Shown here one piece after another: positions 549 through 32,619 of a stretch of 64,000 nt of DNA. The stretch's first letter is position 1. Every line of letters starts with the position of its first letter. A program made the position numbers and the translations under genes. The notes below the pieces were generated by a model. The model made no database searches. It was given only the letters and a program-made list of their open reading frames with translations, and was not told where the DNA came from. Source of the stretch: Rhodothermales bacterium (GTDB taxonomy: Bacteria > Bacteroidota > Rhodothermia > Rhodothermales > VXPQ01); assembly GCA_022825385.1 (NCBI GenBank), contig JAJDWX010000038.1, positions 79,717-143,716 of the forward strand, read 5' to 3'.

Positions 549-1895
549 ATGAGCGAAGACCAGCATACCGAATGGAAAGCGTCCTGGCGCGACGAGCACC
601 TGAAGTGGCTATGCGCTTTCGCTAACGCGCAGGGCGGCGCCCTGGAAATTGGCCGCAACGACAAGGGGCAGGCGGTGGGCCTCGACAACGCCGAACAGTT
701 GATCGAGGAGTTACCCAATAAACTCCGCAACCTGCTCGGCATGGTGCCCGACGTTAATCTTCTGGAGGAGAACGGGCTGCCGTACGTGCAGATTGTGGTT
801 GAACCCTATCCGGTTCCGATCAGTTACCGCGGCAAGTATTACTACCGAAGCGGCAGCACCATGCAGGCGCTCACCGGCGCGGCCCTTGACCGTTTCCTGC
901 TGGGCAAAACGGGGAAGCGCTGGGACGCGGCACCGGTTCCGGGCGTACGGGTTGACGATCTGAATGCCGAAAGTTTGACCAGATTCCGCAATCAGGCAAC
1001 CTCCAGAAACCGCTTGGGAAGGGAGGTCCTTGAGGAGGATAATCCCGGGCTGATCGAAAAGTTGCGCCTGACAGAGGGCCAATATCTGAAACGGGCAGCC
1101 ATCCTCCTGTTTCATCCTGACCCTGAACGCTTCTTTACCGGGGCAGCGGTCAGGATTGGCTATTTTGAGGGCAAGATCGACCTGCGCTATCAGGACGAGG
1201 TCTGTGGCGATCTGTTCGCGCAGGTCCGCAATACGATGGACCTGTTGCTGACCAAGTACCTGAAGGCGATCATTAGTTACGAAGGCATTCAGCGTCTTGA
1301 GACCTATCCGGTGCCGGAAGGGGCGCTGCGGGAAGCGGTGTTGAACGCCATCGTCCATCGCGACTACGCCATGGCCGCGCATATACAAATTCGGGTATAC
1401 CCTGATCGGCTACAGATATGGAATCCCGGAGCATTGCCTGAAGGGTGGACGTTGGAAAAATTACTGGGCAGCCATCCTTCCCGACCCTTCAACCCGGATG
1501 TGGCGAATGCCTTTTTCCGAGCGGGAGAAATAGAAACCTGGGGGCGCGGTATTCAGCGTATCTTTGACGCCTGTCGCGAGGCGGATACCCCCGATCCGGG
1601 CATACGAGTGGAAACGGGCGGGTTCTGGATCAATTTTCCGTTTTCGCAAGCGTACCGGGACAGCATGGCGCCCGGCAATGGACCTTCCGGGACATCGGAG
1701 GCAACCACCCAGGAAAGGATTCTGGCCTTATTGCGCGAAAACCCGGAAATCACCCGCAAGGCCCTGGCAGATCGCATAGGAATCACCCTTGCTGGCGTCA
1801 AATATCATCTTGCCAATCTCAGGCAAGCAGGCCGCATCCGCCATGTCGGATCCGCCCGAAAGGGGCATTGGGAGGTTATGGATGACACCCATTGA
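549..1895 (+). CDS. AlbA_2 (Schlafen-like) + HATPase_c_4 + C-terminal wHTH protein (often annotated as RecG-like ATP-binding protein or transcriptional regulator)
   Basis: ORF 528..1895; ATG at 549 gives MSEDQHTEWKASWRDEHLKWLCAFANAQGGALEIG, an AlbA_2-type N-terminus. EAVLNAIVHRDY...LQIWNPG is the HATPase_c_4 motif. The C-terminal ILALLRENPEITRKALADRIGITLAGVKYHLANLRQAG is HTH-like. Confidence 0.8.
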   Translation: MSEDQHTEWKASWRDEHLKWLCAFANAQGGALEIGRNDKGQAVGLDNAEQLIEELPNKLRNLLGMVPDVNLLEENGLPYVQIVVEPYPVPISYRGKYYYRSGSTMQALTGAALDRFLLGKTGKRWDAAPVPGVRVDDLNAESLTRFRNQATSRNRLGREVLEEDNPGLIEKLRLTEGQYLKRAAILLFHPDPERFFTGAAVRIGYFEGKIDLRYQDEVCGDLFAQVRNTMDLLLTKYLKAIISYEGIQRLETYPVPEGALREAVLNAIVHRDYAMAAHIQIRVYPDRLQIWNPGALPEGWTLEKLLGSHPSRPFNPDVANAFFRAGEIETWGRGIQRIFDACREADTPDPGIRVETGGFWINFPFSQAYRDSMAPGNGPSGTSEATTQERILALLRENPEITRKALADRIGITLAGVKYHLANLRQAGRIRHVGSARKGHWEVMDDTH

Positions 1896-1926
1896 TAATA
1901 GCACAATCGCTATGCAGAACGCAGGC

Positions 1927-1998
1927 ACTACCCCAAAAACTAGCCTATAGACTAGCCCAAAAACTAGCCTATAAACTACCCAAGAAACTATCCCATAA
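1927..1998. repeat. 3 x 24-bp tandem repeat (ACTACCCCAAAAACTAGCCTATAG / ACTAGCCCAAAAACTAGCCTATAA / ACTACCCAAGAAACTATCCCATAA)
   Basis: Read directly. Copies 1 and 2 match at 22/24; copy 3 matches copy 1 at 19/24. Starts 32 nt after the stop of the AlbA_2 gene. Confidence 0.9.
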
Positions 1999-2104
1999 AT
2001 AACGGCGCTCCGGCCCGCTTCGACAAATTCCGGAGCAATTAAGCCGGAGGATTGCGACCTTGTTCCGCGTCAATGCGCCCAACGAGACCCTGAAGCCACG
2101 CCCC

Positions 2105-2171
2105 CGTACCCATGCGCCTGTCCTGGAATGAAATACGCGCCCGCGCGGCGGAATTCGCCCGCGAATGGGAA
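2105..2171 (+). repeat. Direct repeat copy B (start-codon region of the intact MmeI-family gene)
   Basis: Partner of 387-453; see that feature. Confidence 0.9.
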
Positions 2172-4904
2172 GGTGCCGGGTACGAAAAGGGCGAAACGCA
2201 AAGTTTTTACGACAGTTTCTTCCGCATTTTCGGGGTCGAGCGGCGCAGCGTGGCTCGATACGAGGAGAACGTGAAAAAACTGGGGGATTCCAGCGGCTTC
2301 ATCGACCTTTTCTGGCCGGGCGTCCTGATTGTCGAGCAAAAAAGCGTCGGGCGGAATCTTGCCAAAGCGAAAAAACAGGCGGGCGAATATTTCGATGCGC
2401 TTCCCGAGCGGGATCGACCGCGCTATATTCTGGTCAGCGACTTCCAGACGTTCAAACTCCGCGATCTGGACGAGCGGGAAGAGGCCTCCTTTACGCTCGA
2501 AGCCCTGCCCGACCATGTGGAGAAGTTCGGCTTCATCCTCGGCGTACAGAAGCGTTCGTTCAAGGATCAGGACCCCGTCAACATCAAGGCCGCCGAGCTC
2601 GTGGGCAAACTCCACGACGCGCTCGAAGCCTCTGGCTACAAGGGGCACGATCTGGAGCGGTTCCTGGTCCGCATCGTGTTCTGCCTCTTCGCGGACGATA
2701 CGGGCATCTTCGAGCCCCGGGATATTTTTCTTGACCTGCTGGAAAACCGTGCGCGGGAAGACGGTTCGGACCTCGGCGGATGGCTCGCGCAACTCTTCCA
2801 GGTACTCGACACGCCGGAAGACGAACGCCCGAACAATCTTGACGAGGACCTTGCCCGCTTTCCCTATGTGAACGGGGCCCTTTTCGACGGGCCGCTCCGC
2901 ATTCCCTCTTTCGACGCCTCCATGCGGGAGCGCCTGCTCGACGCCTGCCGCTTCGACTGGTCGAATATCTCTCCGGCTATTTTCGGCTCCCTGTTTCAGT
3001 CTGTCATGGACAAGGACGAGCGGCGAAAGCAGGGCGCCCACTACACCACCGAGAAGAACATTCTCAAGGTTATCGAGCCGCTTTTCCTGGACGATCTTCG
3101 GGCGGAGTTTGCCCGGCTCAAGGCCCGCAAGGACAGCCGCCGCCTGCCGGAATTGCTCGCCTTCCAGCAGCGGCTCGGACGGTTGCGTTTCCTGGATCCT
3201 GCCTGCGGCTGCGGCAACTTCCTCATTATCGCCTACCGGGAGCTCCGCGAACTGGAAATCGAGGTACTGAAAGAAACCCGGCCCCGCAGGCAGGTCGATG
3301 TGCTGGCCAGTCTGCTTTCGGTGGTGAACGTCGATCAGTTCTACGGGATCGAACTGGGAGAATTTCCGGCCCGCATCGCGGAGGTGGCCCTGTGGATGAT
3401 GGATCACATCATGAACAACCGCCTCAGCCTGGAATTTGGGGAGACATACGTGCGCATTCCGCTGGAGACCTCGCCGCATATCGTGCATGGGGACGCGCTG
3501 GAGATGGATTGGGCCGACGCATTGCCCCCGGAAGATTGTTCGTACGTGCTCGGCAATCCGCCGTTCGGGGGGTTTGTCATGCGCATCCGGGAAAAGCAAA
3601 TACAGGCCAAGGCACTCATGGAAAGACTTGGAGCGTCAGGGTCGAGACTTGATTATGTCGCAGCATGGTTTCTCAAAGCGGGCGAATATTTTCGCGGAAA
3701 GCGCGCCCGGATCGGCTTTGTCGCCACCAATTCCATTACGCAGGGCGAGCAGGTTGCTCAGTTGTGGCCTGCTTTATTCGATCGCTACAACCTGGAAATC
3801 GCTTTTGTTCACCGCACGTTCGCCTGGGGCTCGGACGCGCGGGGCGTGGCGCATGTGCATGTGGTGATTATCGGGTTATCCGACCGGAAATCCATATCCG
3901 GCGGACGACGGTTATTCACATACCAGACACTGACAGAGGCCCCGCACGAGATTCAAGTGTCGGCCATCAGCCCATACCTGATTGACGGCGGTCACTTGAC
4001 GAATCCGCATCTTGTAATAAAAAGACAACGTGTGTCTATTAGCCATTTTCCAAAGATCGGCGTTGGGACGAAGCCCGTGGATGGCGGACATTACATTTTC
4101 CAGGAAAAGGAAAAAGCGGACTTCGTTGCACTGGAGCCTCAAGCCGCCGAGCTGCTGAGACCATTTGTCGGAGGCGCCGAATACATCAACGACAGAGCGC
4201 GCTGGATTCTTCACGTATCCGGTCAATCGCCAGCGCTCCTGCGTTCGTTGCCGAATGTCATGGACAGAATCCATACGGTCAGGCGTTATCGAACAGAGCA
4301 AGCCGGTCGATTGGGGCAGTCGCTCGCAGATCGCCCCACCGAGTATCACGTTTCCGTCATTCCGGAAACTTCATTCTTGGTTATCCCCGAAGTCAGTTCG
4401 GAACGCCGCCAGTATATCCCCATTGGCTGGTTGAACCCTCCCGCCATCCCGAGCAATCAATTGCTGGTCGTGGAAAATGCACGGCTTTGGCAATTCGCGC
4501 TGTTAACCTCTGCTATACACATGGCTTGGTTAAGATATATTGGCGGACGACTGAAAAGCGATTATCGCTATTCGAGTGGCCTCGTCTACAACACCTTCCC
4601 CGTACCGCCCGGCTTCCATACGGGTAGCCCGAGCGTCGCCAAACTGGAACCGCTTGCGCAGGCCGTGCTCGACGCCCGCGCCGCCCATCCCGACTCTTCT
4701 CTGGCCGATCTCTACGACCCAGACCTCATGCCGCCCAATCTCCGCAAGGCGCACCAAGCCCTCGACCGCGCCGTGGACCGGCTGTATCGCCGCAGCGGCT
4801 TCGCCAGCGAACGGGAGCGGGTGGAATATCTGCTGGGATTGTACGAGAAGATGATGGAGCCGCTGGTGGCGAAGGGGAAAATGAAACGGCGGCGAGGAAA
4901 ATGA
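2112..4904 (+). CDS. Type IIL (MmeI-family) restriction-modification enzyme: nuclease, N6-adenine methyltransferase and specificity domains in one chain
   Basis: 930 aa. N-terminal PD-ExK-like FIDLFWPGVLIVEQKS. SAM motif I FLDPACGCGNFL. Catalytic motif IV VLGNPPFGG. Size and N-terminus (RAAEFAREWEG...ETQSFYDSFF) match the MmeI family as I recall it. Confidence 0.85.
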   Translation: MRLSWNEIRARAAEFAREWEGAGYEKGETQSFYDSFFRIFGVERRSVARYEENVKKLGDSSGFIDLFWPGVLIVEQKSVGRNLAKAKKQAGEYFDALPERDRPRYILVSDFQTFKLRDLDEREEASFTLEALPDHVEKFGFILGVQKRSFKDQDPVNIKAAELVGKLHDALEASGYKGHDLERFLVRIVFCLFADDTGIFEPRDIFLDLLENRAREDGSDLGGWLAQLFQVLDTPEDERPNNLDEDLARFPYVNGALFDGPLRIPSFDASMRERLLDACRFDWSNISPAIFGSLFQSVMDKDERRKQGAHYTTEKNILKVIEPLFLDDLRAEFARLKARKDSRRLPELLAFQQRLGRLRFLDPACGCGNFLIIAYRELRELEIEVLKETRPRRQVDVLASLLSVVNVDQFYGIELGEFPARIAEVALWMMDHIMNNRLSLEFGETYVRIPLETSPHIVHGDALEMDWADALPPEDCSYVLGNPPFGGFVMRIREKQIQAKALMERLGASGSRLDYVAAWFLKAGEYFRGKRARIGFVATNSITQGEQVAQLWPALFDRYNLEIAFVHRTFAWGSDARGVAHVHVVIIGLSDRKSISGGRRLFTYQTLTEAPHEIQVSAISPYLIDGGHLTNPHLVIKRQRVSISHFPKIGVGTKPVDGGHYIFQEKEKADFVALEPQAAELLRPFVGGAEYINDRARWILHVSGQSPALLRSLPNVMDRIHTVRRYRTEQAGRLGQSLADRPTEYHVSVIPETSFLVIPEVSSERRQYIPIGWLNPPAIPSNQLLVVENARLWQFALLTSAIHMAWLRYIGGRLKSDYRYSSGLVYNTFPVPPGFHTGSPSVAKLEPLAQAVLDARAAHPDSSLADLYDPDLMPPNLRKAHQALDRAVDRLYRRSGFASERERVEYLLGLYEKMMEPLVAKGKMKRRRGK

Positions 4905-4976
4905 TCTCTGGCTAGCCCCATGGATGCAATTATCAGTAAAGCATAGGATTTCTTGAGAAAACTCGGCACTCGACAC

Positions 4977-6347
4977 ATGAGCAATAAAAATCCCCTTTTT
5001 TATATTCTCGCCGACGCGGTCGAATCAGAGTTGCAACCGCAGCGAATGATTGATCTACCCAATCTTTGCGATGCACTTGGTCTTCCCAATCCTCTGTATG
5101 AGTCAGGAACAAAGCGTGAGTATATCCGAAGCCGACTCGCCCCCCTTCGTCAAATGCCGGACGAAACTCAACCGGTCGCCCGGGAATTCACGAAACGCTA
5201 TCCTGTGGCCGAAGGAAATAGGGATACGTTCAAAATTGAAGAATTTCTCTGGAAAAATGAAAACTATCCGACCATCACGAAAAAACTTCGGCGAGAACTT
5301 GCTCAGGGATTTGAACAAGAATTTTTGCATTGCGATACCAACGAAATTCTTGCCGCCTTAGAAAAACTTTGGGTACTTCAAGATGAGTTGTATTCATGGA
5401 CCCCTGAAAATTCTCTCTATTTTCAATTCCAAGAATACTTCACCAATAATCCTCAAGGCTGGTCTGTTGAAAAATTTTTCCAGCAGCTCGGTGCTCTTGA
5501 ATGTTCCGACCTCCGATTCGGAAAGTTGATAGAAGCTCTGGTTGGCCCAGAGGTGCGCCCCAATGAGCAAAACCAACGGTCATTTGTTGCGGCAGCGAAC
5601 CGAGTGCTTCGCCTTCATGGTCTCGAACTTGTTGAGACAGGCGAGCAAGATGGATATCCAGCATTCTCTTTGCAGCAGACTGGAATCGGGGCTACTGGCC
5701 GCCCAAAAAATCTAATCTTTGCGTCACAAGTAAAGCCTGATCTTCGTTTTCGGGATGCAGTAAACAACGACATTGAAATCGTCACTGGAGCAGATAAAGT
5801 CTTAATATATGACTACCCTACTCCAACTGAAGGACTGCGTTGGCGTCATCTTCAAGCTTGGTGGGCAAAGTCCAAGGGACATGCGGATGAAGAAAAGGCT
5901 AAAAAGACACTCTACCGTCGCCTTCTGTCATCGCTACCGAAGAATTCGCCTCCCCAGAAACTTCTTTTCGAGACCTTCTTCAAGCACTTTGGCAAAGATA
6001 TACCAGATCTGCCTGCATTACTCCCCGAGGTGTGGCTGCACTACGATCCTCAAACGGTCAAACAGCGTGGTCGAGATGCGCTTTTGCGTCAGCGTATGGA
6101 TTTTTTGATACTGATTTCACACGGAACCAGAATCGTGTTGGAAGTTGATGGTGCTCGCCACTATTCGGATGATAATGGAAAGCCTTCACCTATTCGTTAC
6201 GCAGAAATGGTTGCGGCTGATCGAGAACTCAAACTACACGGATACGATGTGTACCGATTTGGTGGTAGTGAGCTTCAAGGCGTTGATGGAAAACAACTCC
6301 TAAAAACATTCTTTGACCATCTATTCGAAAAGCATAGAGTTCGTTAG
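4977..6347 (+). CDS. Hypothetical protein with a C-terminal DUF559/Vsr-like PD-(D/E)XK endonuclease domain; N-terminal ~370 aa unassigned
   Basis: ORF 4953..6347 starts at TTG; the first ATG is 4977 (MSNKNPLFYIL). The C-terminus RQRMDFLILISHGTRIVLEVDGARHY...AADRELKLHGYDVYRFGGSEL fits the DUF559 pattern (DF...E-x-DG-x-x-H...D-x-x-R...G-x-x-V-x-RF). A sampled line is about 40% G+C, much lower than the flanks. Confidence 0.65.
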   Translation: MSNKNPLFYILADAVESELQPQRMIDLPNLCDALGLPNPLYESGTKREYIRSRLAPLRQMPDETQPVAREFTKRYPVAEGNRDTFKIEEFLWKNENYPTITKKLRRELAQGFEQEFLHCDTNEILAALEKLWVLQDELYSWTPENSLYFQFQEYFTNNPQGWSVEKFFQQLGALECSDLRFGKLIEALVGPEVRPNEQNQRSFVAAANRVLRLHGLELVETGEQDGYPAFSLQQTGIGATGRPKNLIFASQVKPDLRFRDAVNNDIEIVTGADKVLIYDYPTPTEGLRWRHLQAWWAKSKGHADEEKAKKTLYRRLLSSLPKNSPPQKLLFETFFKHFGKDIPDLPALLPEVWLHYDPQTVKQRGRDALLRQRMDFLILISHGTRIVLEVDGARHYSDDNGKPSPIRYAEMVAADRELKLHGYDVYRFGGSELQGVDGKQLLKTFFDHLFEKHRVR

Positions 6348-6424
6348 GTATTTATGCCTGACATTAATGAATGGGCGAACCGTCGGATAAATACTAAACC
6401 TGCAACCACTTCATTTGCCAAAAA

Positions 6425-7909
6425 ATGCCTCCCCGCAAGCAACATCCCTACAAAGACAGCGGGCAACCGATCCTCATGTGGTTTCGGCGCGACCTGCGGC
6501 TGACGGACAATCCCGCGCTGTCCTGGGCAATCCGAACCGGTCGGCCCGTCATCCCCGTTTTTATCCTGGATGAAGGTTCCGAAAGCCGTCCCTCGGGGGG
6601 CGCGTCCCGCTGGTGGCTACACGGCAGCCTCCACGCCCTGCACGGCGACCTGAAGAAACTGGGCAGCCGCCTCACTCTGCGCCGAGGCGCTTCCGGGGAA
6701 ACCATCGCCGCCCTGGCGCAGGAAACCGGCGCATCGACGATCGTATGGAACCGGCTTTACGATCCTAAAATCGTTCGGCGGGACGCGGAAATCCGGGCGC
6801 AGTGCGAAGCGGCGGGCGTCGGGATACGATCTTTCAATGCCGCGCTGCTCTTCGAACCCTGGACCATTCAAACAGGGAGCGGTTCGCCCTACCGGGTCTT
6901 CACGCCGTTCTGGCGGCGGTGCCTCGAACAGGGATTTGCGGTCCCCGAGACTGAAAAACCCGCCCCGGTTCCCCCCGCTTGCTGGCCAGCGACCGAAGCG
7001 CTTGATACATGGAACCTGCGATGTCATAATCCAGACTGGGCGGCAGGTTTTCGGAAGGCGTGGCGACCCGGAGAAGAAGGCGCCCGGGGGCGGCTCGCAG
7101 ATTTTCTGCGTAACGGCGCCGAAAAATACGCGACGAACCGGGACGCGCCGGGCAAACAAGGCACAAGCAGGCTGTCCCCCCATCTGCATTTCGGGGAAAT
7201 CGGGCCGCGCCAGATCGTTGCCGCGCTTGGCGGAATCGAGCCGGGGGCGGACAAGGACGCCTTCCTGCGGGAGATTGGCTGGCGGGAGTTCTGCCATCAT
7301 CTACTGTTCCACAACCCGAAGATGGAGCGAGTCAATATACGGCGCGAGTTCGACCGCATGCCCTGGCGGAACGACCCGGACGGCTTGCGGCGCTGGCAGC
7401 GCGGCCAGACCGGATATCCGCTGGTGGACGCAGGGATGCGCGAACTATGGACTACCGGCTGGATGCACAACCGGGTCCGCATGATCGCGGCGTCGTTTCT
7501 GACGAAGCATCTGCTGATCGACTGGCGGCATGGGGCGGACTGGTTCCTGGATACGCTGGTCGATGCGGATTTGGCCAACAACAGCGCCGGTTGGCAATGG
7601 ACCGCCGGGTGCGGCGCGGACGCAGCCCCGTACTTCCGCATATTCAATCCCGTCGCGCAATCACGGCGCTTCGACGCCGCCGGGGAATACCTGCGGACAT
7701 GGATCCCGGAACTCCGGCGACTGCCGGGCAAAGCAATTCATGCTCCGTGGCAAGCGCCGCCATCCGTTCTGGACAAGGCCGGAGTCCGACTCGGCGAAAA
7801 CTACCCCTGTCCCATCGTCGACCACGCCGAAGCCCGGAGGCGGGCGCTGGGTATCTATCGGAGGCGTATTCGGGGGATAGGGAAGGGAAGTCGAAACAGC
7901 TGCCAGTAA
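6425..7909 (+). CDS. phrB: Deoxyribodipyrimidine photolyase (class I CPD photolyase / cryptochrome family)
   Basis: MWFRRDLRLTDNPAL; TSRLSPHLHFGEI; GWREF; DADLANNSAGWQWTAGCGADAAPYFRIFNP. Confidence 0.9.
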   Translation: MPPRKQHPYKDSGQPILMWFRRDLRLTDNPALSWAIRTGRPVIPVFILDEGSESRPSGGASRWWLHGSLHALHGDLKKLGSRLTLRRGASGETIAALAQETGASTIVWNRLYDPKIVRRDAEIRAQCEAAGVGIRSFNAALLFEPWTIQTGSGSPYRVFTPFWRRCLEQGFAVPETEKPAPVPPACWPATEALDTWNLRCHNPDWAAGFRKAWRPGEEGARGRLADFLRNGAEKYATNRDAPGKQGTSRLSPHLHFGEIGPRQIVAALGGIEPGADKDAFLREIGWREFCHHLLFHNPKMERVNIRREFDRMPWRNDPDGLRRWQRGQTGYPLVDAGMRELWTTGWMHNRVRMIAASFLTKHLLIDWRHGADWFLDTLVDADLANNSAGWQWTAGCGADAAPYFRIFNPVAQSRRFDAAGEYLRTWIPELRRLPGKAIHAPWQAPPSVLDKAGVRLGENYPCPIVDHAEARRRALGIYRRRIRGIGKGSRNSCQ

Positions 7910-7964
7910 ACATGTACAGAGAATAGAGGCATACATTATTGATTACACGATTTTTTTGGACACA

Positions 7965-8616
7965 TCACATTCCAAGCCCTTCAAGTTGTTCCAGCCAAGC
8001 ATTAAAATGAGGACATATGGAGCGGATATTATCAAGACCGATCAAGGCGGCCATCTGCGGTCCTATGGTCGATTTCAGGTATTGATAGTCAGGAAATTGT
8101 TCAATAATTCTTTTCGATGGCGCGGTATGTTGGCCGTCGTTAATCAATTCTGGACATGTAGTCTTTCGTAAAGCCTTTTGCAAGATAGGTATTTTCTTTT
8201 TTGTCTCATCAAAAAATTGATCTAATAATGACAATTTCACAAATAAATAAGCCTCAAATTCATGCAATTGAATGAATGGAATAAAACGATCATCTTTTGT
8301 TTTTTCAAACCATGCCTTTTCAAGATTTTTTACACGTTCATAAGGAACATGACGTAATTTGTCAAATTCAGACAATTTGGGAAAATTTGGATGCAGGGCG
8401 TAAAGATCAATCATTGTAGTAAAAAACACATTGGCATTCGAATCTTCCTTAAGAGAACGTTCTATATCGTTCTGCATTGCTATGAAATTTTTTCCGCCTC
8501 CGCGATGAGTTTTTCCTTTTTTTCGGGCGTGGGCAATCAGGCGCGGTCGATTCATGTATACGCCGAATTGAGCCAGATGCGGTTTCAAGACCGTATCGGC
8601 GAATGTTTGCTCTGTT
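7965..8616 (-). pseudogene. DUF4276-family protein, 3' part (codons ~14-227) cut off from its 5' end by the cassette insertion
   Basis: ORF 7965..8588 begins at an internal TTG. The same frame upstream reads ...FSV*VPTEQTFADTVLKPHL, with stops inside the left TIR. Joining it to 10416-10455 rebuilds MARLYLFAEGQTEQTFADTVLKPHLAQFGVY..., a DUF4276-like N-terminus (EG-x-TE...PHL, from memory). Confidence 0.75.
8609..8616. repeat. Target-site duplication, left copy (GCTCTGTT)
   Basis: Identical 8-mer at 10416-10423. Each copy directly abuts a terminal inverted repeat. Confidence 0.85.
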
Positions 8617-8664
8617 GGGACTTATACGGAAAACTACCCAAAACATTCCTAAACCCCTATAAAA
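8617..8664. repeat. Left terminal inverted repeat (core 8617-8644; gapped similarity to ~8664)
   Basis: See the mobile_element entry. The extension shares CCCTATAAAA with the right end. Confidence 0.75.
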
Positions 8665-8713
8665 CAAAGACTTAAGAAAAGCATCCCCGTAAATCTTGAC
8701 TTTCCTATATCCG

Positions 8714-10297
8714 TTATTTTCCAACTACTGGATGCGCTTGCTTCGCCCTCTCGTCGTCAAGGAAACTACCCCAGGCTTTCCGACCTTTCCGGCTATTGCA
8801 GTTTCCGCAAAGCCCGATACGATTCAGTATATCGTCCGATCCTCCCCTTGACTTTGGAATAACGTGGTCCAAGTGTAAATCCACGTGCCTTGCTACGTGC
8901 TTTAAGGTGCAATAAGGATTACCACAAAGCTGGCCTTGTTTCTTCCATAATAACAATCTCATTTTATCAGCAGATATGTATTCAATATCTGTTCTCCTAG
9001 GTGAAGTTTTTTGTACTGTTACATATTCTAACCCTACGTGTTGATCCAGTCCAGATGTCTCCTGAAGTCGTTCGTTTGTCACGGTTTCCGCTTCAGGATC
9101 AATGTCAATGCCTATCCAGTTTCGCCGTTGCCTTTCGGCAGCTACACAGGTTGTAGCGCATCCACAGAATGGGTCAAGTACCAGATCGCCTTCGTTGCTG
9201 GATATTTTTATTATCCGTTCATAAAGTCCAACGGGTTTCTGAGTTTTCCATTCGGTTCTGACCAAAGAACGTGGTGGTAGCCATTTAACTTCTTCTTCAA
9301 TACCCTTTTTACTGCCGTACACAGTGCCTTCCGTATAGGGTTGATAAGCCCAAATATCATTTAAGACAACTCCATCTCTTTCATCCAGATAACGAACCAT
9401 AGTAGGCCAAGCATTACCTGGTTTTATTTCTATGAATCCCTTCTGGTACAGAGCTTCAAGTTTTTGAATAGGGGATAGTTGTAAATAAGCAGTATCCATA
9501 AACTGATTATAGTGCTTGGGAATGGCCCAGTGTCTGTCCTTTGGTTTGGGATCAAAGCCCCTCCAAGATTCGCACGATGGGCCGTCGGTTGCTCCTTGGC
9601 CCGTAAGGATGTTTCCACCCACAGTATAACGATAACGTTCGCCTTCCTTTTCATAATGCTCCTCTACGTGGCCCTTCATATACGGCTTCCGAACGATATT
9701 AAATGTGTATTTTTTGTTATGTTTATAGTAATAAAATATCGTATCGTGTTCGTTTCCTAACGACCTTGTACAATTTTTCGGAAGCTTACGCCAAATAATT
9801 TCAGAACCGAAATTATTTCTTCCAAATATAGCATCCAGTAATAAGCGAAGATAAGCGTTGGCCTCCCTATTGCAATGTAAATAAAGACTTCCGGTCGGTT
9901 TCAATATCCGGTGCATTTCTATCAAGCGTGGAGCCATCCACGCAAGAAACGCTGCTACGCTGTTTTTAGTTTTTCCAGTATCAATCTTTCCTGTATGCTT
10001 TTCAATGCTTCCGCTCTCAATGACTACAGCGGCTTCAATTAATTCCTTGATGGCTGGATGATCAGTAGCAATAAGATCGTGCCATTCATTAGTAACTTCA
10101 TCCCACTTCCAACGGTCGTCAAACTGTTGATTAGCCGCCTTACTTCCCATAGGCGCATTGTAAAGTCGCTTCGTATTAAACGGGGGATCTGTGGCTATCA
10201 GGTCAATGGATTCCGAGTTGATGCCTCGCATAACCCTCAGGTTGTCGCAGATGTACAGGGTACGGTTCTTGACGTTCGGTTCAGGGAGGGAGGGCAT
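8714..10297 (-). CDS. Beta-class N6/N4 DNA methyltransferase fused to a C-terminal HNH endonuclease domain
   Basis: 527 aa. Motif IV IATDPPFNT lies near the N-terminus and SAM motif I VLDPFCGCATT lies late, which is the beta-class order. C-terminal HNH: CGNPYC...HLDHVIPKSRGGSDDILNRIGLCGNCNSRKG. Confidence 0.85.
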   Translation of the reverse strand: MPSLPEPNVKNRTLYICDNLRVMRGINSESIDLIATDPPFNTKRLYNAPMGSKAANQQFDDRWKWDEVTNEWHDLIATDHPAIKELIEAAVVIESGSIEKHTGKIDTGKTKNSVAAFLAWMAPRLIEMHRILKPTGSLYLHCNREANAYLRLLLDAIFGRNNFGSEIIWRKLPKNCTRSLGNEHDTIFYYYKHNKKYTFNIVRKPYMKGHVEEHYEKEGERYRYTVGGNILTGQGATDGPSCESWRGFDPKPKDRHWAIPKHYNQFMDTAYLQLSPIQKLEALYQKGFIEIKPGNAWPTMVRYLDERDGVVLNDIWAYQPYTEGTVYGSKKGIEEEVKWLPPRSLVRTEWKTQKPVGLYERIIKISSNEGDLVLDPFCGCATTCVAAERQRRNWIGIDIDPEAETVTNERLQETSGLDQHVGLEYVTVQKTSPRRTDIEYISADKMRLLLWKKQGQLCGNPYCTLKHVARHVDLHLDHVIPKSRGGSDDILNRIGLCGNCNSRKGRKAWGSFLDDERAKQAHPVVGK

Positions 10298-10367
10298 TGT
10301 ATCGGTAGGGCTTTACGTGAAGGGGGTCAGAGAATATACGGTATTTTTTGGAAAGGTTATATCCGTT

Positions 10368-10415
10368 ATTTTTTATAGGGAAGATGGGGTTTGGATAGTT
10401 TTCCGTATAATTCCC
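10368..10415. repeat. Right terminal inverted repeat (core 10389-10415)
   Basis: Reverse complement matches the left TIR; see the mobile_element entry. Confidence 0.75.
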
Positions 10416-10423
10416 GCTCTGTT
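10416..10423. repeat. Target-site duplication, right copy (GCTCTGTT)
   Basis: Identical to 8609-8616 and abuts the right TIR. Confidence 0.85.
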
Positions 10424-10455
10424 TGTCCTTCTGCAAAGAGATAAAGCCGTGCCAT
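10416..10455 (-). pseudogene. DUF4276-family protein, 5' fragment (first 13 codons, MARLYLFAEGQTE)
   Basis: ATG at 10455-10453 shares its A with the ATPase stop TGA at 10457-10455 (TGATG). As it stands the frame runs into the TIR and stops after 29 codons (MARLYLFAEGQTERELYGKLSKPHLPYKK*, to 10366). Confidence 0.7.
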
Positions 10456-11555
10456 CAGTGGGGTCCTCCTCCAATAATATTCTTTTCCCAGATTTCGCCA
10501 AGCGAATAATCCTCCAGCCAGGCCTTCAATTTTTCGGCTTCTAATCTACAAAATTCAGTGGTTTTACCATTTCGTTCTACTGTCACTATATCTTCAGGTT
10601 CGAAATAGTCTACAAACGTACTGGATTGTGTACTGACGAGCACCTGCCTATAACGACTTGCCGCCTGAAACAACGATGCGACTACATTAAGCGCATAGGG
10701 ATGCAGACCAAGTTCCGGTTCGTCCACTACGATCACATAAGGGAGTTTTTCAACAGGTTGCAAAAGCAATGAAATTAAACAAATGGCTCGCAGTGTTCCG
10801 TCCGAAAGCTGATGGGGGCCAAATATTAGATCAGAAGATCGGTGCCGCCAGTTCAAAATAATATCTCTGGATTCAGTTTTTTCAAGAGAAAAATCTTCAA
10901 AAAAAGGTGCCACCTGTCGAATTGTTTGTACGATTCTATTATACCTCATTTCATTAGACGATTTAAGCTCATAAAGTACGGCTGCAAGATTTGCAGCATC
11001 AGGCATGAGCCATCGATTATCTTCAACATAGCAATATTGTCGAATTCTGGCCGTGGAAGATGTATCGTGAAAATGATATACGCGACATCTATTAAGCAAA
11101 TGATGTAATGCCTTTGCAGTTTCATTTTTTGACTCAACTGCCTCGACAATGCGTGTTTCTTGATGACCTGATTCAAGCGAAATTTCTTTGGGTTTTTCAT
11201 AACCTTCTTGATGATAAAATAGTTTCTCTTCAGCAAAAATCATAGAATCTCCAGCAGCATGAAAGAGCCTCATTTTATAGGTATTGGTACCGTTTTTTAC
11301 TTCAAACTGTATTTCCGCTTCAATTTGCGGAGTTATTTTGGGGCCAAAATGTAAATTAGCTGTTGCACGGCCTGTTGATCCAATATATTGCTGAAACCGC
11401 CCTCCCATCAATTCATTGATTAATTTAAAAAAAGCAATAAGATTACTTTTACCTGCTCCATTAGCTCCAATCAAAACATTCAGAGACCGAAATGTTAACC
11501 GAGTTTCCTGAATGGATCGAAAGCCCTTGATTGTAATGTAATTCAGTTTCGCCAT
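10455..11555 (-). CDS. ABC-type (AAA_15/AAA_21-like) ATPase, partner of the DUF4276 gene
   Basis: The ORF 10455..11570 start is TTG; ATG at 11555 gives MAKLNYITIKGFRSI. Walker A LIGANGAGKSN. ABC-signature-like LSDGTLR. Walker B/D-loop VIVVDEPELGLHP. H-loop-like VSTQSS. Confidence 0.85.
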   Translation of the reverse strand: MAKLNYITIKGFRSIQETRLTFRSLNVLIGANGAGKSNLIAFFKLINELMGGRFQQYIGSTGRATANLHFGPKITPQIEAEIQFEVKNGTNTYKMRLFHAAGDSMIFAEEKLFYHQEGYEKPKEISLESGHQETRIVEAVESKNETAKALHHLLNRCRVYHFHDTSSTARIRQYCYVEDNRWLMPDAANLAAVLYELKSSNEMRYNRIVQTIRQVAPFFEDFSLEKTESRDIILNWRHRSSDLIFGPHQLSDGTLRAICLISLLLQPVEKLPYVIVVDEPELGLHPYALNVVASLFQAASRYRQVLVSTQSSTFVDYFEPEDIVTVERNGKTTEFCRLEAEKLKAWLEDYSLGEIWEKNIIGGGPH

Positions 11556-12038
11556 CTTGCTTGCAGCCAATGTCTCTTGCGATGCTTCTTACTTAGGGCT
11601 TTTCTGCATTTACCAAGGAACGCGAACGCCATTACTGACAGGATACGCCTCTATCCGTTCTAAAATAAGCACCGAAAGGTGAAAGGTAGCCCAAGGCTGC
11701 CCATGCCAGCGAGGAAAACAAGAAATCCGCGGACCTGCTTCGTTTCCGTATTCATACGATTGGGAGCATTGGATGACAAGGATGTACAACGGAGGTAGTG
11801 CTTATAGTATACGGAAGGCGATATATTTTTGCAAATTCTTTATTTTTTATCATAAATTATTGAAATACATGGATTTACACACAATACTACTGTCTATATT
11901 CCCGCGCTCCGCCTCTCATTATCCCCTCCCCCGTCTCCCTTGCAAAGCCGGGCAGTACGTCCGGTCTCCCAGCCAATCCATCGCCTCGATAAGCATGAGG
12001 AATGCCTGGCAAGACACAATTCCCGGCTTTAATACATT

Positions 12039-22425: not shown

Positions 22426-23805
22426 TTATCGCGGAGGCATATTGCTAATATGAACATGCCCGGTCTTATCGTCTTCGCAATTGCGAGTTCCCCCATAAGT
22501 ATACGAACCGGGGCGAGCTTGTCGATTAAATAAAACAATAGAATTTTTAAGATCTTCCGTCCATGGACCAGTACGACAATCGCCATATATCTGAATATCC
22601 GCAGCCCTACCGTGTATATGGGCGGAATCGGTATAGCGGCCCTTGATCAAACGATTGCCTTCAGGACACCGGTAACCAGAATTTATGTTCAAAGTACCAT
22701 AAATTCCTTTGGAAATGAGAAAAGATTTTACTTCGCTATACAAGGCTTTCAGATCGGAATGTACGTAACCGTACCCGCCGTGCTTGCCATATTCTGTACT
22801 CTTATTATTTGTAACGAATATACCGTGATTATTCTTGAAATTAGAACAGGTAAAATTGGTTAAATCAGAATTATGCTCTTTGGCAAGATCACATTGATGC
22901 TGAGAAGAACAAGTACAATCATCTTTTTCATCTTCATTATTTCCATCGCTATTTTCACCACCGCCGCCGCCTCCGCCACCAATATCTCCACCACCACCTT
23001 CTCCACCTGCTACATACATACAAGATGAACATACTACTTCAATATCATATGCGCCACAAGTACGACTACTGGGGTCAGATACAACATATGTACAAGTCCT
23101 TCCATAGGTAACATAACAATTAATGTAACATATCGTACTACTATTTGCTATCGAATTAAATTTGCCAAAATTGTTTATATCAATCCGTTTTTTTAGAATC
23201 TTTGTTGAAAGTTCAATGGGAATTTTATTTGGGCGATAAAAATAAGAATCCACGTCTTCAAACATAATAGTATAACGGGACACGGTTATTTTTGTTTCAC
23301 CGAAATCTTTCGCTACATATCGTTCCACGTAGTCTGTGAAATTTTCCTTTGATAATTTTTCGTCGCTCGAAAAGGCGATTACGTGTCCAGAAACTACGTC
23401 TCCCGAAGGCTCCATATCCATAACGAGCGTGCGAACATGGTACATGACGCTATCGTAGCGTTCGTCCGTATATTTTCCGAGCGTCGTCGCCAAAACGAGC
23501 GTTTCTTCCGTTCCGTCTATCGACAAGACAACGGACTCGTTCCAGTCCGGAGGGAATTTCTCGATGAAGGCAAGCAACGCAAGGGAATCTTCGTCGCCTT
23601 CCGCCTTCGACAAGCGGTCTGACACTTCGAACTCGACCTGTTCCGCGTACCAGGCGCGGGCCTTGGCGGTTAGGCCATCGTTCGGGCCGATGTCCTCCAG
23701 AGAGGAGAAATCGGCGCCGGAATCGCAACCGGGCAGAAAGAGCGCGGCGGCGAACAGGCCCCAAAGGACAGGGAGCGTGCCGAAGCGGAAAGACCGGGTA
23801 CGCAT
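22426..23805 (-). CDS. Lipoprotein with a Cys-rich region, a poly-Gly linker and a C-terminal LAS/M15-type (DD-peptidase-like) zinc metallopeptidase domain
   Basis: The ORF start at 23826 is GTG; ATG 23805 gives MRTRSFRFGTLPVLWGLFAAALFLPGC (lipobox). GGEGGGGDIGGGGGGGGENSDGNNEDEKDD linker. SGYRCPEGNRLIKGRYTDSAHIHGRAADI...GHVHIS resembles the Peptidase_M15 (H-x6-D...H) pattern. A sampled line is about 35% G+C. Confidence 0.7.
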   Translation of the reverse strand: MRTRSFRFGTLPVLWGLFAAALFLPGCDSGADFSSLEDIGPNDGLTAKARAWYAEQVEFEVSDRLSKAEGDEDSLALLAFIEKFPPDWNESVVLSIDGTEETLVLATTLGKYTDERYDSVMYHVRTLVMDMEPSGDVVSGHVIAFSSDEKLSKENFTDYVERYVAKDFGETKITVSRYTIMFEDVDSYFYRPNKIPIELSTKILKKRIDINNFGKFNSIANSSTICYINCYVTYGRTCTYVVSDPSSRTCGAYDIEVVCSSCMYVAGGEGGGGDIGGGGGGGGENSDGNNEDEKDDCTCSSQHQCDLAKEHNSDLTNFTCSNFKNNHGIFVTNNKSTEYGKHGGYGYVHSDLKALYSEVKSFLISKGIYGTLNINSGYRCPEGNRLIKGRYTDSAHIHGRAADIQIYGDCRTGPWTEDLKNSIVLFNRQARPGSYTYGGTRNCEDDKTGHVHISNMPPR

Positions 23806-30411: not shown

Positions 30412-32619
30412 TTAGCGCGGCGCCCGCAGCACAACGGTAGAAAACGCCTCCACGAGCATCCGCCCGTCCTCGATTCGGTCCCCTTCCCGAAAACCTCCGC
30501 CTTTGGAATCCGCAGGCATATCCATGCCCGACACGAATTCCCAGGGGCCTTGCGGAGAATCCGTTCCGGCGCAAAGCAGCGTTTCCGGGGCGGGAAGCGC
30601 AAACGTCGCCGCGCGCTCCCCGGCGTTGAACAGCGTCAGCATGGTGTCGTCTTCGCGCTTGCGGCCCGCTGCGTCCAGGCCATGGAGCCCGCCTCCGCAC
30701 AGCAACACGCCGAACGCCCGCAACCCGTGATCCGTCCAGTCGTCATGGCGCATTTCGCGCCCCTCCGGATGCCACCAGAACACGTCGCGGGCGCCCTCGT
30801 CGTTCGTCTCGCCCCGCAAGAAGAAACGCCGCCGAAAACTCGGGTGCGCCTTCCGAAGGGCCGCCATCTTCTTCGTAAAGTCCAGAAAGGCCCGCTTCCG
30901 GTCGTCGAGGTTCCAGTCGTACCAGGCGAGTTCGTTGTCCTGGCAATAGGGATTGTTGTTGCCTTCCTGCGTATTCGAGAGTTCGTCGCCGCCCAGCAGC
31001 ATCGGAACGCCCTGGGAAAGCAGCAAGGTCGCCATCAGGCTCCGCTTGCGCCGCTCGCGCGCGGCCAGCACGTCGGGGCGGTCCGTGGGGCCTTCCACGC
31101 CGCCGTTCGCGCTGTAGTTGGGTTCGTGTCCGTCGCGGTTGTTTTCTCCGTTCGCATGGTTGCGCTTGCGTTCGTAACTGACCAGGTCCTCCAGCGTGAA
31201 TCCGTCGTGGGACGTTACGAAATTGACGGAGGCGGACACGCGCCGATGCGGCGCCCGGTACAAATCGTTCGACCCCGCATGCCGGGTCGCAAAAACGCCC
31301 TGCATCCCCGCGTCGCCCCGCCAGAACCGGCGCGCGACGTCCCGAAAACGCCCGTTCCATTCCGACCAGAGCCAGGGAAACCCGCCCACGCGGTACCCCC
31401 CCGGCCCCACGTCCCAGGGCTCCGCAATCAGTTTCACGCGGCTGAGCACGGGGTCCTGCTCGACCAGCGTAAAAAAGGCGGAAGCCATGTCCACGTCGTA
31501 CTGCGGGCGCGCCAGCGTCGTCGCCAGATCGAACCGAAATCCGTCTACATGCATGTCGCGCGCCCAGTACCGCAAGCTGTCCATCACAAGGCGCAGGACT
31601 TGCGGGCATCCGGCGTCCAGCGTATTGCCCGTCCCCGTATAATCCGACAGGAAGCGAAGCTGGCCCGGGTTGGCCTTGTAATACGAAAGATTGTCCAGGC
31701 CCCGCAGGGAAAGCGTGGGGCCCAGCCGGTTTCCTTCCCCGGAATGGTTGTACACCACATCCAGAATCACCTCGAAGCCCGCCGCGTGCAGCGTACGCAC
31801 CATCTCCTTGAACTCGCGCACGGCTCCGGCGAGGCCCGAGGCGGCGTACCCCGGCTCCGGCGCAAACCAGCCCAGCGTATTGTAGCCCCAGTATTGATTC
31901 AGCCCGGCCTCGAACAGGCGGCGGTCGTGCACATGGGCATGGACAGGCAGCAATTCGATGGCCGTGACGCCCAGGCTCCGCAAGTGGTCCAGTACGGGCT
32001 CCGAAGCCAGGCCCGCATACGTGCCCCTGAGCGCCGGCGGCACGTCCGGATGCCGCTTGCTGAGGCCCTTGACGTGCGTTTCGTATATAATGGTGTCTTC
32101 CCAGGGGATGTCCGGCGGGCGGTCCCCTTCCCAGTCGAACCGCTCGTCCGCCACGGCCCCGAGCGGGGCGTACGGCGCGCTGTCGAGGTCGCTGAAAAGA
32201 AGGTCTTCCTCCGGCGTTCCGGGAACATAGCCGAACAGGCTGTCATGCCAGACAAGCGGGCGCCCGACGGCCTTCGCGCAGGGATCGAAAAGCACCTTGT
32301 TGGGATTGAACCGGTGGCCGCGTTCGGGGTCGTACGGACCATGCGCGCGGTAGCCGTAACAGGCCCCCGGACCGAGGCCGGGCACGTACCCGTGCCACAG
32401 GGGGCCGGTTCGTTCGGGAAGCGCAAGCGTTTCCGAAGGCGCGTCCGCATCGCCATCCTCGAACAACACCAGTTCCACCTGCTCCGCATGCCGACTGAAT
32501 ACCGAGAAATGCACGCCGGCGCCGTCCCAGCGCGCGCCGGGCGGGTTGGGCGCGCCGGGCCATATCCGGGCCTGTTTTTTCGAGTGCGTTCCCGCTGATT
32601 TCGACGTACCTTTCAACAT
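30412..32619 (-). CDS. glgX: Glycogen debranching enzyme (isoamylase-type, GH13)
   Basis: [15 protein letters not shown]; [29 protein letters not shown]; [13 protein letters not shown]; GFRFDLA; IAEPWD; [11 protein letters not shown]. Confidence 0.9.

Follow-up and report, generated by a model that had tools for sequence, protein, structure and literature searches.

A probable mobile insertion cassette with IS1595-family ends carries a methyltransferase-HNH gene and splits a HEC-01B candidate defence gene in a Rhodothermales bacterium

In 2009, Siguier, Gagnevin and Chandler used the IS1595 family to define the "transporter IS", insertion sequences (IS) that carry passenger genes, and mobile insertion cassettes are likewise an established class; PMC3129680 and PMC11891212 cite both concepts. 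One described case is MIC231 of Bacillus cereus, from the IS231/IS4 family (De Palmenaer et al. 2004, as cited in PMC3129680). In 2010, Furuta, Abe and Kobayashi described transposon-like restriction-modification units, among them a type II unit of X. oryzae, whose inverted repeats are 65 bp long, and a unit of N. gonorrhoeae, whose repeats are 26 bp long; both have an 8-bp duplication. One of their units had no transposase, and in that of N. gonorrhoeae a COG3677 transposase is present in decayed form. They raised the idea of a "non-autonomous transposon" moved in trans (PMC2853133). Here, we describe a 1799-bp element at positions 8617-10415 of a 64,000-nucleotide stretch of DNA from a Rhodothermales bacterium (assembly GCA_022825385.1, contig JAJDWX010000038.1; hereafter, the window). 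This element splits the DUF4276 gene of a candidate defence pair, HEC-01, and carries a gene for a fusion of a DNA methyltransferase with an HNH nuclease (MTase-HNH). An earlier note, made from the letters of the window, had proposed that it is a mobile insertion cassette moved in trans.

The octamer GCTCTGTT is found on the + strand of the window at 8609-8616 and 10416-10423 and at no other place, and these two copies are the left and right target-site duplications of the element. Its left end (8617-8675, + strand) lies on the 3' side of the cargo gene and its right end (10358-10415, - strand) on the 5' side. The cores of the two ends are terminal inverted repeats (TIRs): the arm at 8617-8642 and the reverse-complemented 10390-10415 agree in 24 of their 26 positions, and the similarity reaches about 48 nt with gaps, CCCTATAAAA included. 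A search with the arm, allowing up to three mismatches, returned these two sites only, and none was expected from 100 shuffles. The element contains a single long open reading frame (ORF), the MTase-HNH gene at 8714-10297 on the - strand; a Pfam search of its ORFs found no transposase or integrase domain, and tblastn with two IS1595 transposases found no IS1595 transposase encoded in the 64-kb window. One weak tblastn match (31552-31875; E 0.38) was discarded as not being a transposase, lying within a long ORF that we take to encode a glycogen-debranching-type enzyme. When 8617-10423 is excised in silico, an ORF of 227 codons beginning MARLYLFAEGQTEQTFADTV is rebuilt, and its product covers positions 1-192 of the 192 of the DUF4276 model PF14103 (E 3.8e-51) with its residues 8-223, so that the junction at residue 13/14 lies inside the match. 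The duplication, the repeats, the sole long ORF and the rebuilt gene had been described in these terms by the earlier note, and each description held, down to the Pfam accession.

The proof of insertion comes from relatives that have the site without the element. A search with the rebuilt protein found intact proteins of 227 aa (P0121 and P0122; 97% identical), and four related contigs (L008-L011), metagenome scaffolds labelled KELL22-1, share with the window a gene order of M48 peptidase, AlbA_2/HATPase_c_4 protein, ATPase, DUF4276 and photolyase. The BLAST alignments of the window to these contigs (95-98% identity) end exactly at 8616 and restart exactly at 10416, and the two flank alignments overlap by the 8 bp. 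All four contigs read ...GAATGTTTGCTCTGTTTGTCCTTC..., with GCTCTGTT present once and the 227-aa gene uninterrupted; they are the empty sites that the earlier note had suggested looking for, and the interrupted state, whose conservation in relatives it had set against its own reading, is found in none of them. These empty sites, in which GCTCTGTT stands once and the gene is whole, and the exact breaks in the alignments show that the element is a genuine insertion.

The lead to the IS1595 family came from the cargo. Its closest homologue outside its own 90% cluster (P0002; 68%) is encoded directly downstream of a DDE_Tnp_IS1595 transposase in the contig L001, and this pointed to IS1595 as the source of the ends. 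When 185,579 species genomes were scanned for the 20-nt tip GGGANTTATACGGAAAACTA, four loci came up. One of them, L005, from a Rhodothermales metagenome-assembled genome (MAG), has the tip twice, inverted, at 1053 and 4859, bounding an element of 3807 bp (1053-4859) that is flanked by its own 8-bp duplication, AATCAAGT. Over 59-60 nt, the left end of the window element and the L005 end at 1053 share about 97% identity (57 of the first 59 aligned positions), and the two right ends are 90% identical over 58 nt. Inside L005 lie an MTase-HNH gene, placed and oriented as in the window, a divergent ORF of 325 aa and two small ORFs; the 325-aa product matches DDE_Tnp_IS1595 (1.9e-38) and Zn_ribbon_IS1595, and scores 181.7 bits against the NCBIfam IS1595 transposase model (cutoff 75). 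A second full-length element, L018 (3270 bp; duplication AATCCAGA), has the same architecture, with an IS1595-family DDE transposase, 95% identical to that of L005, next to MTase-HNH. The 26-nt tip of its end at 3324 is the right tip of the window element without a mismatch (26/26), the 58 nt of the window right end are 88-90% identical to the L018 and L005 counterparts, and the left end type of the window is also present in L018, an element from the KELL22-1 metagenome series that also yielded the empty-site contigs. In other words, the full-length IS with the same ends that the earlier note had suggested searching for exists in two versions, both of the IS1595 family, and the ends are shared over 58-60 nt at 88-97% identity with members that encode a transposase.

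The footprint agrees with this assignment. An 8-bp duplication is typical of the IS1595 family, and the length of the window duplication recurs in six related insertions. An autonomous IS1595 element would be recognised by a PF12762 DDE transposase, usually together with a PF12760 zinc ribbon; such a gene is absent from 8617-10415 and from the window as a whole, and a PF12762-type transposase is present in L005, L018, L015/L016, L006, L001 and L024, which share ends and/or cargo with the window element. A metagenome scan with the tip found three further ends, one of which runs into a transposase gene, and three of the end matches in the genome and metagenome scans lie at the very start of contigs; a scan of viral contigs with the tip found nothing. 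Among plasmids, the transposase has relatives of 46% identity at most and matches no named IS. Several other candidates were set aside. L001 has an IS1595 transposase upstream of its cargo homologue, with a left end of weak similarity and a right end that cannot be recognised, and L002 and L003, also contigs of the closest cargo homologues, yielded no convincing ends; in L002, an inverted repeat of 14 nt (764-777 and 2835-2848) was dropped, its flanks being without a duplication. The tip GGGAnTTAT also resembles what we take to be the ends of the ISNwi1 group (ggnnatTAT), a resemblance that we treat as a lead only.

Elements of the same group occur elsewhere, with and without these exact ends. 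One circular genome of 3.07 Mb contains two 3215-bp copies (L015 and L016) of a transposase plus MTase-HNH element, 99.97% identical to each other, with ends that read GGGAGTTATATACAATAGTCCC and with the duplications CTGCGTTT and AATCTGAT at different sites. An alphaproteobacterial MAG likewise contains two copies of 3573 bp (L006 3303-6875 and L007 1843-5415; 100% identical), with the 20-nt tip of the window at one end, the duplications GAAAAAAG and CTTTTTTT, and genes for a transposase, an N6_N4 methyltransferase and a BglII-family restriction endonuclease. The sister elements behave as active IS, with near-identical or identical copies at different sites and 8-bp duplications throughout. 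The complete BglII-type system of L006 also suggests that this IS group habitually carries cargo of the restriction-modification type. In an IMG/VR contig (L024), a transposase is directly followed by MTase-HNH, between inverted repeats that agree at 25 of 26 positions. The transposases of L001, L005, L006, L015 and L018 are 46-60% identical to each other, except for the 95% of the L005/L018 pair, and that of L024 is 53-59% identical to these five.

Some further features of these contigs were noticed on reading them. The L006/L007 element contains an ORF of 266 aa that we read as a nested IS5-like transposase, and, to judge by the ORFs on either side, another DNA methyltransferase gene seems to be split by the L006 copy and a gene that reads as glycosyltransferase-like by the L007 copy. 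L015 has three additional IS1595-like ends (GGGGnTTATACAGnAA...) at 2559-2578 (+), 6917-6936 (-) and 8009-8028 (-); they suggest transposase-less remnants or cassettes of another relative in which the IS is nested, and no clean duplications were found at these three ends.

The cargo of the window element is a protein of 527 aa with the Pfam domains N6_N4_Mtase (3.8e-44) and, at its C-terminus, HNH (2.6e-9). In an alignment of 12 sequences (A1), the methyltransferase motifs DPPF (D37-F40) and DPFxGCATT (D375-T383) are invariant, as are the HNH/zinc-finger residues C458, C463, D477, H478, N492, C497, C500 and N501, which form a Cys4 and DH..N..N pattern. With the motifs of both domains conserved in this way, the gene looks functional. 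Residues ~170-345 vary in length and sequence among relatives, as would be expected of a target-recognition region. The protein may act as an orphan methylase to which a nuclease is attached, or as a restriction-modification enzyme in a single chain. Among solved structures, the nearest extend over parts of its methyltransferase domain and none spans the fusion, and no characterised homologue covering the fusion was found. Protein searches of plasmid and phage collections found no MTase-HNH fusion and returned methyltransferase-only relatives of 43% identity at most, and a DNA search of plasmids with the whole element found no match. A kinship of the HNH domain with IscB/Cas9 was considered and dropped, the model match being partial and far below the cutoffs.

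At the nucleotide level, the cargo is 96.6% identical to a gene in L021 (L021 153-1711 against window 10269-8711) and 91.8% identical to a gene in L020 (82-1635), and both of these alleles sit in a different IS1595-family chassis, the one with GGGAGTTATATACAATAGTCCC ends; the similarity to the window is restricted almost exactly to the ORF. Against the L005 and L018 alleles, which stand between ends like those of the window, the identity is ~65-73% and the central part is unalignable. Because the same allele is found in different chassis and the similarity is confined nearly to the ORF, the MTase-HNH gene is taken to be exchanged between IS chassis as a module.

The internal borders of the element can be followed in some detail. 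An exact 15-nt direct repeat, TATATCCGTTATTTT, occurs at 8706-8720 (+ strand), where it overlaps the MTase-HNH stop codon, and again at 10358-10372, on the inner edge of the right end; its chance expectation is estimated at ~0.002. The repeat is direct, not inverted, and brackets the cargo in the window element, and its equivalents in L005 (1141-1155 and 4802-4816) and L018 (3221-3235 and 98-112) bracket the entire interior, transposase included. The homology between the window cargo and L021 stops within this repeat, directly after TAACGG. Upstream of the cargo ATG lies a leader of 60 nt (10298-10357, - strand), the presumed site of the promoter; it has no BLAST match in L005, L018 or L021, and a consensus promoter scan gave no site in it. 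A promoter and terminator scan of 8500-10560 likewise gave nothing above shuffled sequence, its four promoter sites being at shuffle level, and an Rfam search of the element and the window returned no RNA family and thus no sign of a guide RNA. A third end-like motif, the degenerate GAGAATATACGG (compare GGGAATTATACGG), faces rightward at 10321-10333, directly inward of the right end, and may be the relic of an end, a subterminal binding site or a chance match.

The target of the insertion is the second gene of a pair. HEC-01 is a candidate defence pair of an ABC-ATPase and a TOPRIM-like protein, which failed to protect against phage in the only published assay (bioRxiv 10.1101/2024.01.29.577857). 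In the window, the upstream partner at 10455-11570 (- strand) encodes an ABC-type ATPase (Pfam AAA_21/AAA_15) that matches the PADLOC model for HEC-01A (PDLC04175; 7.3e-145), and the adjacent DUF4276 gene corresponds to HEC-01B, for which the PADLOC model gives 9.4e-70 with the intact orthologue P0121; the window therefore has the adjacent ATPase and TOPRIM-like DUF4276 genes that define the pair. The start of HEC-01B overlaps the stop of the ATPase gene as ATGA, and the same overlap is found in L008 and L009. The element has entered between codons 13 and 14, leaving a 5' fragment at 10416-10455 (- strand) that encodes MARLYLFAEGQTE, with the N-terminal acidic EG motif, and a 3' fragment at 7965-8616 (- strand) that runs from codon 14 to the stop. 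The EG motif in MARLYLFAEGQTE is taken to be the TOPRIM glutamate. Because the first 13 codons with this motif are cut off from the rest of the protein, the insertion has very probably inactivated this candidate system.

A second member of the element group has struck the same type of locus. The L016 copy (3097-6312; flanks 2969-3096 and 6321-7326) splits an ATPase gene, and its excision in silico yields a 377-aa protein that matches the HEC-01A model (3.5e-125) and is 37% identical to the window ATPase. HEC-01 loci have thus been hit independently twice among ~8 insertions, once in HEC-01B (window) and once in HEC-01A (L016). In this small sample, the two hits may mean that AT-rich defence islands collect mobile DNA in general, or they may reflect selection. 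The window locus itself is a low-GC island (35-46% against a genome of ~60% GC), and the mean GC of the seven duplicated target octamers is ~32%, a composition that fits a preference for AT-rich DNA.

How the element came to its site can be set out as follows. An IS1595-type DDE transposase would bind both ends and join them to target cuts staggered by 8 bp, as is assumed from the family, and gap repair would then produce the duplication of GCTCTGTT; insertion by a transposase of this type is strongly supported. The enzyme would have been supplied in trans by a full-length relative such as the L018 or L005 element, and the insertion would have cut HEC-01B while bringing in a methyltransferase-nuclease gene preceded by a leader of its own. 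The element has the inverted ends of a known IS group with its typical duplication, and a passenger coding sequence that looks intact, with no transposase, as a mobile insertion cassette should. On these grounds we hold it to be, with reasonable though not high confidence, a non-autonomous mobile insertion cassette derived from a passenger-carrying IS1595-family IS, with the transposase most likely acting in trans. The category chosen by the earlier note is right in view of the IS1595 ends, the cargo and the missing transposase, and movement in trans is likely. Several points count against our interpretation: the genome, metagenome and viral tip scans found no second transposase-less copy; the 64 kb read contain no cognate transposase from the same genome, the candidate helper L018 being placed within the KELL22-1 metagenome series; the chemistry of IS1595 transposition is assumed from the family; and the loss of HEC-01 function is deduced from the split of a system that did not protect in the published assay. 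The alternative with the best claim, possible but in our judgement the less likely course of events, is that an autonomous IS1595-family element with transposase and MTase-HNH inserted here and later lost its transposase by internal deletion or recombination. It would explain why a single cassette is known and why all related elements with resolved ends (L005, L015, L016, L018, L024 and L006/L007) keep the transposase, and the 3-5% divergence from the empty-site relatives gives time for a deletion. A simple deletion should nevertheless leave part of the conserved transposase-MTase intergenic segment or the MTase allele that belongs to the chassis. Instead, no match exists for the 88 nt that lie inward of the right end or for the first ~nine codons, the transposase-MTase intergenic segment common to L018 and L021 is absent, and the allele is 97% identical to that of L021, from another chassis, and ~65-73% identical to those with the same ends. 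For these reasons, and because both ends are fully kept, a lack of the transposase before the insertion is favoured, and the cassette seems to belong to an older lineage, evolving independently, that had no transposase by the time it entered this comparatively recent site.

The cargo itself might be suspected of having driven the movement, as a self-mobilised unit that resembles a homing endonuclease or a self-mobile restriction-modification unit. The occurrence of one allele in two unrelated chassis with homology nearly limited to the ORF (window 10269-8711) speaks for this, and self-mobilisation was left open by Furuta et al. for restriction-modification units flanked by inverted repeats (PMC2853133). 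The borders of the inserted unit are, however, IS1595-type terminal repeats and not gene borders, the 8-bp duplication is constant over seven insertions of an element group with a DDE transposase, and HNH homing yields neither TIRs nor a duplication of fixed length, so that we regard self-mobilisation as very improbable. Somewhat less improbable, yet still unlikely in our view, is that MTase-HNH is a long-standing functional partner of this IS1595 clade that stabilises or spreads the element, and that these elements prefer HEC-01-type loci or are selected to knock them out. At least five distinct elements, with two gene orders among them, have MTase-HNH beside transposases of just 46-60% identity. 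Such a partner might serve as an addiction module, or it might cut empty sites that lack methylation, much as TnpB and IscB act for IS200/IS605. As to the reading that there was no insertion at all, and that we see a chance repeat or else a split gene in a conserved, functional state, its probability is close to nil: the empty sites of the four related contigs refute it, as does the 90% cluster of the DUF4276 protein, in which six of seven members are intact at 227 aa and one is truncated at 196 aa, and no chance match to the terminal repeat is expected.

Other parts of the island and the window also differ from the surroundings. In the relatives, a ~1-kb segment with a DUF1828 gene lies between DUF4276 and the photolyase gene (L009 3956-4980), and the window has just 51 bp (7887-7937) at that place, a second structural difference within the island. 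Beside the photolyase gene, an ORF of 464 aa (4953-6347) within a stretch of lower GC (45-49%) has no counterpart in the aligned relatives, and on the corresponding side (upstream of 6400 in the window) L009 has an MmeI-type restriction-modification gene in its place; this region looks like a variable flank of a defence island. In the composition profile, a low-GC patch at 22500-23500 (39-41% against ~60%) may be a further horizontally acquired insert.

The interest of this case lies in the completeness of its record, which unites a filled site, four empty sites, a full-length element of the parent type and sister copies that behave as active. If our interpretation is right, it shows an IS family shedding its transposase and yet moving or persisting as a gene cassette, and such cassettes carrying DNA-modification and nuclease genes between phyla. 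The case also records a mobile element that breaks one candidate defence system and delivers another DNA-modifying enzyme, one concrete mechanism for the turnover of defence islands. The end sequences (GGGAnTTATACGGAAAACTA...) will allow annotators to recognise the element group; what is known of transposition is otherwise unchanged. The recurrent pairing of MTase-HNH with an IS1595 transposase, and its exchange between chassis at the ORF borders, seem to be less documented: a literature search that ran without ISfinder and Siguier et al. 2009 found no paper on this pairing or exchange.

Among the known systems, MITEs (miniature transposable elements with inverted repeats) are similarly non-autonomous, with the terminal repeats of a parent IS and a target duplication. 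Unlike the window element, which is 1799 bp long with an intact gene of 527 codons, they are short (a few hundred bp) and non-coding, so that the window element is not a MITE. The units of Furuta et al., as they are described, resemble it in cargo and footprint: they carry DNA-modification or restriction genes between imperfect TIRs, lack a working transposase, and have an 8-bp duplication and a relative with the empty site. They differ in having separate R and M genes and no identified parent IS, whereas the parent IS of the window element has been identified. MIC231, as far as PMC3129680 describes it, shares with the window element the IS ends around a passenger, the missing transposase, the duplication of the parent IS and the presumed mobilisation in trans; its parent belongs to IS4, in contrast to the IS1595 parent of the window element, which is known as one copy. 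The transporter IS of the IS1595 family itself are also among the closest known systems. The full-length relatives have the DDE_Tnp_IS1595 and zinc-ribbon transposase, the imperfect TIRs starting with GGG, the 8-bp duplications and the genes foreign to transposition that mark this class, and the window copy departs from it in two respects, having no transposase and carrying an MTase-HNH fusion as its passenger.

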